NCBI GenBank assembly: GCA_945787125.1
Contig: CALZHW010000108.1
Coordinates: 1-12,391, forward strand
Direction: 5' to 3'
DNA length: 12,391 nt
Origin: an uncultured Ectothiorhodospiraceae bacterium
GTDB taxonomy: Bacteria; Pseudomonadota; Gammaproteobacteria; S012-40
In this document: one piece after another, positions 7,769 to 7,841 of the stretch
How positions within the stretch are numbered: position 1 is the stretch's first letter
How the letters are laid out: each line of letters begins with the position of its first letter
Notes under the pieces: generated by a model
What the model was told of the DNA's origin: nothing
Databases searched by the model: none
Seen by the model: only the letters and a program-made list of their open reading frames with translations
Program-made: the position numbers and the translations under genes

Positions 7769-7841
7769 TGCTTTCGACCGGATTCGAACCGGCAACCCAC
7801 TGATAACTATCAGTTGCTCTACCCGATTGAGCTACTAAGCA
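7769..7841 (-). ncRNA. tRNA-like element (tRNA-elbow mimic / degenerate tRNA) on the minus strand
   Basis: The minus-strand sequence is TGCTTAG-TA-GCTC-AATCGGGTA-GAGC-A-ACTGA-TAGTTA-TCAGT-GGGTT-GCCGG-TTCGAAT-CCGGT-CGAAAGCA. The D-arm is perfect, with G18 and G19, and the T-arm is perfect, with a TTCGAAT loop. The anticodon loop is only 6 nt and the acceptor strands pair at only 4-5 of 7 positions. No CCA is encoded. It is therefore not a functional canonical tRNA. Confidence 0.55.

Follow-up and report, generated by a model that had tools for sequence, protein, structure and literature searches.

A conserved tRNA-like RNA upstream of a Band-7 gene in an RtcB repair operon fits the description of the predicted b7a-tRNA class

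Our study concerns a tRNA-like element in a 12,391-nucleotide (nt) contig (CALZHW010000108.1 of assembly GCA_945787125.1) from an uncultured Ectothiorhodospiraceae bacterium; we refer to this whole stretch as the window. The element occupies 7769..7841 of the minus strand, so its RNA runs 5' to 3' from 7841 to 7769, within a 620-nt gap between RNA repair genes and a gene for a Band-7/SPFH protein. Comparison with its relatives indicates that the element folds into an L-shaped tRNA body that is under selection and does not decode. It is a member of a class that has already been predicted, the "band 7-associated tRNA," or b7a-tRNA, to which it was matched by published description and not by alignment. 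As for function, we give a probability of about 60% to the view that the RNA serves as the scaffold or cofactor of a Band-7 ribonucleoprotein (RNP) in a response to tRNA damage.

What we take as the description of the class comes from a preprint in which RtcB of certain bacteria is said to adjoin a Band-7 domain protein and a predicted noncoding RNA (ncRNA) (bioRxiv 10.1101/312249). As cited in the same source, b7a-tRNA was predicted by Burroughs and Aravind in 2016 (Nucleic Acids Res 44:8525); it is regarded there as possibly functionally redundant with YrlA, and the prediction, by that account, was never validated experimentally. Compared by description, the element in the window agrees on each point, as it adjoins a Band-7 gene, adjoins RtcB, and strongly resembles an authentic tRNA. 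Rfam holds no family for b7a-tRNA.

The resemblance to tRNA extends to individual bases. Against the Rfam tRNA model (RF00005; gathering score, 29 bits), the element scores 40.8 bits, with an E value of 6.4e-06 for the whole window. Direct reading of the sequence bears out the view of the original prediction that the D and T arms are canonical: the D arm reads UA GCUC AAUCGGGUA GAGC and carries G18 and G19, the T arm reads GCCGG UUCGAAU CCGGU, and canonical bases also stand at U8, A14, A15/U48, A21, and G46. A perfect 5-bp anticodon stem (ACUGA/UCAGU) closes the 6-nt loop UAGUUA (7809-7804), and the 3' side encodes no CCA, reading ...AGCA CACGU straight into a hairpin. On the coordinates, the short loop, and the missing CCA, the original prediction was correct; the minus strand is a correction that we add. 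It had further described acceptor strands that pair poorly, with A-A, G-G, and T-C mismatches. The acceptor is indeed imperfect, but those three mismatches are the product of a forced 7/7 register. In the register placed by MAFFT alignment, G67 (7775) is bulged and six pairs form (U1-A73, G2-C72, C3-G71, U4-A70, U5-A69, and G7-C66) beside a single A6/A68 mismatch, and a single-sequence fold retains five pairs (UGCUU/AAGCA). The minimum free energy fold of the window copy alone contains no cloverleaf (z = -1.4), and the fold of the whole region of ~276 nt is not more stable than its shuffles (z = -0.26). Thermodynamics alone is thus uninformative here, and support for the structure comes from covariation.

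ARAGORN did not call the element when it scanned the window. Its sole call was a canonical tRNA with anticodon CAU at 1677-1753 of the plus strand, which scores 74.9 bits and provides a within-window control for a normal tRNA. This gene follows rpoD directly, a position that ileX likewise takes in enterobacteria.

The element has counterparts at every related Band-7 locus that we compared. Two loci belong to close metagenome-assembled genomes found by an RtcA-based scan of species genomes (L001 and L002), two were found by a DNA-pattern scan of metagenomes (L005 and L006), and the others are contigs traced from Band-7 homologs (L007, L009-L014, and L018-L020). With Band-7 proteins 56-95% identical, a tRNA-like sequence stands upstream of the Band-7 gene in the same orientation at 15 of 15 loci, 230-480 nt from its start (~320 nt in the window), and the relatives score 39-68 bits against RF00005. 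Either rtcB or rtcA falls within the fetched flanks at 11 of the 15; in Microbulbifer variabilis, for example, the order is rtcR / rtcB-RNA-Band7-rtcA. A locus with rtcR, rtcB, and rtcA and without Band-7 (L004) gave no tRNA-like match.

Substitutions among these copies preserve the fold. In the aligned family, the D arm and the bases of the D and T loops are invariant, while the anticodon and T stems and acceptor pairs 2:71, 3:70, 4:69, and 7:66 are kept with compensatory changes. The Levitt tertiary pair 15:48 covaries as well (AU 8, GC 3, UA 1). Over the proposed structure as a whole, pairing holds in 91.7% of cells, compared with 32-44% in slid-partner controls; compensatory double changes occur in 34 of 62 pairs, and none of 500 shuffles reaches the observed covariation. 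Folding with homologs (RNAalifold on 12 sequences, along with pair counts), a check that the original prediction had proposed, gave a conserved and covarying fold in which the elbow-forming parts are the most constrained, as that prediction had claimed.

An argument can be made that the element is simply a decaying tRNA pseudogene, or else a functional decoding tRNA that gene finders miss. It passes the RF00005 threshold, and ARAGORN names some of the relatives tRNA-Asn, Lys, Met, Phe, and so on. Yet synteny, invariant tertiary bases, and compensatory substitutions (those of the 15:48 pair and of the stems of the acceptor, anticodon, and T arms) persist down to 56% Band-7 identity, which sustains the earlier judgment that this is a conserved tRNA mimic and not a gene in decay. 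With bona fide bacterial tRNAs the element shares the cloverleaf, the D- and T-loop and tertiary bases, and the score above threshold. Unlike them, it has a 6-nt loop, a bulged and mismatched acceptor, neither CCA nor a free 3' end, and an anticodon whose identity shifts among orthologs, A34 triplets included, and it is embedded in a longer conserved RNA. Because a fold maintained by selection in this way excludes both decay and decoding, we consider either explanation very improbable.

Not all peculiarities of the window copy are shared by its relatives. Anticodon loops have 7 nt in 12 of the 15 copies and 6 nt in three (the window, L011, and L013), and five members encode NCCA (L009, L010, L014, L019, and L020). 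The acceptor is more uniform in its weakness: about half of the members have mismatches at pairs 1:72, 5:68, and 6:67, and this weakness is, on the alignment, a trait of the family. The more distant members form 5-6 of 7 acceptor pairs, and the rtcBA-linked members of the window clade are without CCA and have the weakest acceptors. Since most relatives have 7-nt loops and several combine 6/7 acceptor pairs with an encoded CCA, the defects of the window copy point to degeneration at the level of its lineage, with the 6-nt loop arising as a local loss of one base from a loop under relaxed constraint. Compared with the b7a-like family, the window copy (6-nt loop, bulged acceptor, no CCA) thus represents a degenerate end. 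The original prediction had treated the 6-nt loop and degenerate termini as diagnostic, and they are mostly not features of the family. It had also proposed that relatives with 7-nt loops and fully paired acceptors would reveal a lineage-specific pseudo-tRNA. Such relatives are largely what we found, but the label remains mistaken, since synteny, covariation, and the lack of a decoding role extend to all of the family.

A subset of loci has a different neighborhood. At 5 of the 15, an array of 5-10 ordinary tRNA genes lies immediately upstream of the RNA-Band7 pair (L009:2841-3681, L012:3286-3724, L014:3769-4258, L019:160-1851, and L020:457-2358). An HNH endonuclease gene separates array and RNA at four of these (none was called in L014), and three have no rtcB within the flank. 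The tRNA-like copies at the array loci encode NCCA in four cases and ACCG in L012, and all five acceptors are well paired. The RNA-Band7 module appears to combine with either repair genes or tRNA-replacement arrays.

Upstream T-arm modules, inspected by eye only, also accompany distant Band-7 proteins from Escherichia coli (42% identity), Burkholderia cenocepacia (47%), and Subdoligranulum (34%); none of these loci matched the Rfam tRNA or YrlA models or our model of the 5' domain (R1, below). The gene order is rtcR / RNA-Band7-RtcB in B. cenocepacia and RNA-Band7-RtcB in Subdoligranulum. In Burkholderia, a tRNA-like body can be seen by eye in which a GAAA-capped stem replaces the anticodon arm. 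In E. coli, Band-7 stands beside a nucleotidyltransferase. There, the Band-7 ("slipin") and nucleotidyltransferase genes lie between yjbD (DUF3811) and lysC (strain STEC639, L015:3475-5928), an arrangement found in many E. coli strains, and the unannotated region upstream holds a T arm (UGGGUUCGAUUCCCA) and a hairpin, with no full tRNA-like body. Among 5426 complete genomes of E. coli, 1629 carry the full intergenic region.

Where the loop has 7 nt (12 copies), eight different anticodons occur (GUU, UUG, UUU, AGU, CAU, GAA, AAU, and UAG), and several copies lack U33, with A33 or C33 in some. By this comparison, the anticodon is dispensable and the elbow is not. Alternatively, the element could be a decoy or bait for anticodon nucleases, with Band-7 as an accessory: its lineage-specific loop would absorb a tRNA-cleaving toxin, or its cleavage would yield a 2',3'-cyclic-phosphate fragment that activates RtcR. 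A precedent exists in the proposal of Hughes et al. that YrlA's tRNA-like domain could be a competitive inhibitor of an anticodon nuclease, along with the response of RtcR to tRNA fragments (PMC7790460). It is also in keeping with a decoy that orthologs differ in their anticodon but often preserve the loop frame (C/U32, U33, A37, A38), that the triplets include the known nuclease targets GUU, UUU, and CAU, and that the five tRNA-array loci suggest replacement of tRNAs after attack. However, the three 6-nt loops, that of the window among them, and the tetraloop in Burkholderia indicate relaxed rather than diversifying selection on the loop, and a decoy would leave the strict Band-7 linkage and the conserved 5' domain unexplained. 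We therefore regard this alternative as unlikely.

The tRNA-like module does not stand alone; it is part of a conserved block that runs from ~7946 to ~7700. Directly abutting it is a 5' domain with a closing helix (P1, GUUUGGC/GCUAAAC), a strongly covarying stem of 7 bp (P2), and a three-way junction with hairpins CGG..CCGG and GCGCAU-CCACC, in which the motifs UUAGCGG and GUGUACCAA are near-invariant. Pair counts for this domain are 90-93% paired, and six of the seven P2 pairs show compensatory changes. A covariance model of the domain (R1), built from 12 loci, gave scores of 58-84 bits at all three independent loci, in each case right next to a tRNA-like sequence, and found no other match in the 157 kb searched. 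On the other side of the module, a variable hairpin is followed by a 3' module with a second T arm. The variable hairpin reads CAGGU/ACCUG in L002 and is deleted in L005, and its loop is not conserved; the pairs of the 3' module are 85-100% kept, with compensatory changes present. The 5' domain, the tRNA-like module, and the second T arm occur together upstream of Band-7 at 15 of 15 loci. No Rfam family matches the 5' domain or the 3' module. Downstream, a conserved tail and a terminator-like hairpin (7702-7689) are, by sequence, likely the 3' end of the ncRNA. The embedding of a tRNA-like part in an RNA of ~260 nt with a covarying 5' junction and a second T arm may be new, as may its association with tRNA arrays, insofar as b7a-tRNA is known to us by description only.

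The position of the RNA would also suit a cis-acting element of the Band-7 transcript. It could recruit RNase P or RNase Z to cut an rtcBA-band7 polycistron (tRNA punctuation; compare mascRNA), or it could be a leader that controls Band-7 expression. The constant orientation 230-480 nt upstream of the Band-7 start, the terminator-like hairpin and conserved patches between the element and the start codon, and the CCA encoded in some members, as in processed tRNAs, are consistent with such a role. Nevertheless, a cleavage signal needs no conserved 105-nt 5' domain, no second T arm, and no covarying tertiary pair, and in Burkholderia and Subdoligranulum the RNA heads a Band7-RtcB operon in which there is nothing to separate. 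A role purely in cis strikes us as quite unlikely.

Additional conserved segments flank the block. Upstream of the 5' domain on the minus strand are a conserved hairpin at 8005-8030 (GGCCGGGC...CGGCC), absent in L006, and, at 7950-7997, the likewise conserved motif AAAGAAUG followed by a hairpin that has several compensatory changes; both may be part of the same RNA, or its start or promoter. In the stretch that separates the terminator-like hairpin from the Band-7 start codon (7485-7688, minus strand), the window clade shares the short patches AACAACGG, CCGCUUUGG, GGGCU, AAUG..AUAUUCCG, and GGGAGCCCGACUUU, which may be a leader or regulatory element for Band-7. Within the block, the 3' strand of P1 (CUAAACAC, 7850-7857) pairs equally well (-9.3 kcal/mol) with GUGUUUAG (7746-7753, 3' of the variable hairpin), in a helix that would enclose the whole tRNA-like module and for which L002 has two compensatory changes. 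We did not adopt this long-range helix, which in the window clade equals P1 in stability but which distant members do not conserve; it may be a lineage-specific alternative conformation. In L001, ARAGORN called an overlapping class-II-like tRNA-Leu(UAG) at 4679-4771, in which both T arms and the variable hairpin are combined with the short tetraloop hairpin in the role of a long variable arm; this hints that the 3' module may itself be a second, reduced tRNA-like fold. An attachment-site remnant of a prophage or island, considered on account of the partial T arm near 7716-7730, was rejected, since what lies downstream is the Band-7 gene and no integrase, and the second T arm is conserved as a component of the RNA. 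A transfer-messenger RNA (tmRNA) was likewise rejected, the match being a 15-nt T loop at 12.8 bits.

Because it combines a tRNA-like fold with an Rtc operon, the element invites comparison with YrlA, and the original prediction called it YrlA-type. The YrlA of the Salmonella rsr-yrlBA-rtcBA operon is likewise a tRNA-mimicking ncRNA, with an RtcB-RtcA operon under RtcR/sigma54 control, a putative scaffold-protein partner, and a near-identical D arm (GUAGCUCAAU..GGUAGAGC). But YrlA has its arms in permuted order (T arm, then a closed acceptor-like hairpin, then the D arm) and opens into a Ro-binding stem (Rfam consensus; PMC4201824), and its partner is Rsr/TROVE, whereas the element keeps the normal order of acceptor, D, anticodon, T, and acceptor, has a closed anticodon arm, and is paired with Band-7. 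The tRNA-like part of Yrn1, a Y RNA of Deinococcus radiodurans, can be drawn as D, anticodon, and T arms in that order, its 6-nt loop closed by an anticodon-like stem of 5 bp (PMC4201824). Yrn1 differs in having no full D arm or variable loop, in ends that form a Ro-binding stem, and in tethering Rsr to PNPase; no partners of the Rsr/PNPase type were seen here. A Y RNA that binds Ro60/Rsr would account for the tRNA-like domain in an Rtc operon and for a weak match to the YrlA model (RF02553) that is driven by the shared D arm, and the 6-nt "anticodon" loop of Yrn1 would be a parallel. The match amounts to 19.6 bits (E = 0.24) against a gathering threshold of 69 bits, with only the D arm aligning well; a Pfam scan of the 10 large open reading frames (ORFs) of the window found no TROVE/Rsr domain; and the arm order is different, with no Ro-binding terminal stem. 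Contradicted already by model score, partner protein, and topology, this is the reading to which we give least credence.

The features discussed are collected in Table 1. Pfam scans of the ORFs place rtcB, rtcA, the element-bearing gap, and the Band-7 gene in that order on the minus strand, with rtcR divergent. The promoter-like site upstream of rtcB, TGGCACGGCAGCTGCA, has one mismatch to TGGCAC-N5-TTGCW and is no more than a match to the consensus; the gap between rtcA and Band-7 yielded no sigma70-like promoter. At the stop codon of rtcA (8056-8106), there is an AT-rich, near-perfect palindrome of ~45 nt (GTACCTAAGAAATGTTTTTATTTTTAGAAAATATTTCTAAGGTAC) that L001 and L002, the closest relatives, do not have; it may represent a hairpin insertion or a miniature repeat, and Rfam yields only spurious microRNA matches to it. 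An exact-protein lookup of the window RtcA returned no match.

Table 1. Positions of the RNA parts and neighboring genes in the window
Feature	Position	Strand	Basis
tRNA-like module (b7a-tRNA type)	7769..7841	-	RF00005 match, sequence reading, orthologous copies at 15/15 Band-7 loci, covariation
Acceptor strands of the module	7841-7835 with 7776-7769, G7775 bulged	-	
D arm of the module	7832-7816	-	
Anticodon stem; 6-nt loop	7814-7810/7803-7799; 7809-7804	-	
Variable loop of the module	7798-7794	-	
T arm of the module	7793-7777	-	
5' domain (105 nt), directly abutting the module	7843..7946	-	RNAalifold on 12 sequences, pair counts, model R1
Variable hairpin CACGU-CUGUUAA-ACGUG, immediately 3' of the acceptor 3' strand	7752..7768	-	Stem covaries
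3' module: GG-A-rich conserved linker (UUUAGGGAA), tetraloop hairpin, second T arm	7716..7751	-	Present in 15 loci
Short tetraloop hairpin AGCC-UUCG-GGCU (3' module)	7742-7731	-	
Second canonical T arm GGGG-UUCGACU-CCCC (3' module)	7730-7716	-	
Conserved tail GUAGUAAACC and terminator-like hairpin CAAGGGCACCCUUG, then UUUG	7689..7715	-	Terminator scan; conserved in window clade
Band-7/SPFH ("slipin") gene, no evident membrane segment	6291..7445	-	Pfam PF01145, 1.7e-29
rtcA (RNA 3'-phosphate cyclase)	8104..9114	-	Pfam RTC, 1.3e-77
rtcB (RNA ligase)	9170..10408	-	Pfam RtcB, 2.3e-130
Sigma54-type promoter-like site TGGCACGGCAGCTGCA, upstream of rtcB	10466..10481	-	Pattern search, consensus match only
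rtcR (CARF-AAA+ sigma54 activator), divergent from rtcB	10627..12216	+	Pfam RtcR 2.8e-85, Sigma54_activat 1.1e-45

The AlphaFold2 model of the Band-7 protein (mean confidence score pLDDT, 75) comprises three beta modules at the N terminus, an SPFH domain, and a long helix, and in Foldseek it matches stomatin, HflK/C, and prohibitin, which form rings or cages, and, over its full length, major vault protein. The vault, made of major vault protein and vault RNA, resembles the Band-7/RNA pair in its SPFH-like "shoulder," long helix, N-terminal beta repeats, formation of a cage, and small structured ncRNA, and its component TEP1 has a TROVE domain. An SPFH protein of Pseudomonas aeruginosa, PaFlo8, is likewise encoded by a gene embedded in an rtc locus (PMC13086221). 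No sign of a phage origin came from a Band-7 profile scan of IMG/VR or from any other result.

We favor the scaffold or cofactor model on the analogy of Ro60/Rsr with YrlA in the Salmonella operon, and a partner role for Band-7 on the strict RNA-Band7 linkage at all 15 loci and the frequent linkage to rtcB, rtcA, and rtcR. Most likely, the RtcR/sigma54 promoter would drive transcription of the RNA along with rtcB, rtcA, and the Band-7 gene. The RNA would then fold into an L-shaped tRNA body with no part in decoding, whose acceptor end runs on into further structure. The 5' junction domain, the tRNA-like body, and the second T-arm module could bind the oligomeric, soluble Band-7 protein, and the resulting RNP might gather broken tRNAs and tRNA-handling enzymes (RtcB, for example) in one place for ligation. 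Several points weigh against this model. At 4 of the 15 loci, the RNA-Band7 pair has no rtcB in its vicinity, and RtcB is therefore not obligatory. The constant position of the RNA, directly 5' of the Band-7 gene, would also be expected of a cis-acting leader. Identity with the b7a-tRNA family is not confirmed at the sequence level, as the description derives from a citing paper, and we infer the co-transcription of the RNA, its binding to Band-7, and any role in ligation.

A bolder version of the scaffold model can be put forward, although we think it doubtful. In it, the functional unit would be not the 73-nt tRNA mimic but the composite RNA of ~260 nt. That RNA, with its possibly new 5' junction, tRNA body with an evolvable anticodon, and second, elbow-like T arm, might be the RNA subunit of a soluble, vault-like Band-7 cage that captures or imitates specific tRNAs during attack by toxins or phages, and that is plugged alternately into repair (RtcB/RtcA/RtcR) or replacement (tRNA-array and HNH) modules.

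Bacterial RtcB repair operons still have poorly defined substrates and cofactors, and the pair of Band-7 and tRNA-like RNA is the least studied of the cofactors proposed. Our finding rediscovers a published prediction, as far as that prediction is described in the citing preprint. The locus and its relatives offer a comparative set of 15 loci with strong covariation, and an RNA architecture that can be tested. Two facts narrow the hypotheses about what the RNA does: the anticodon is dispensable but the elbow is not, and the RNA-Band7 pair also travels with tRNA arrays that take the place of RtcB.
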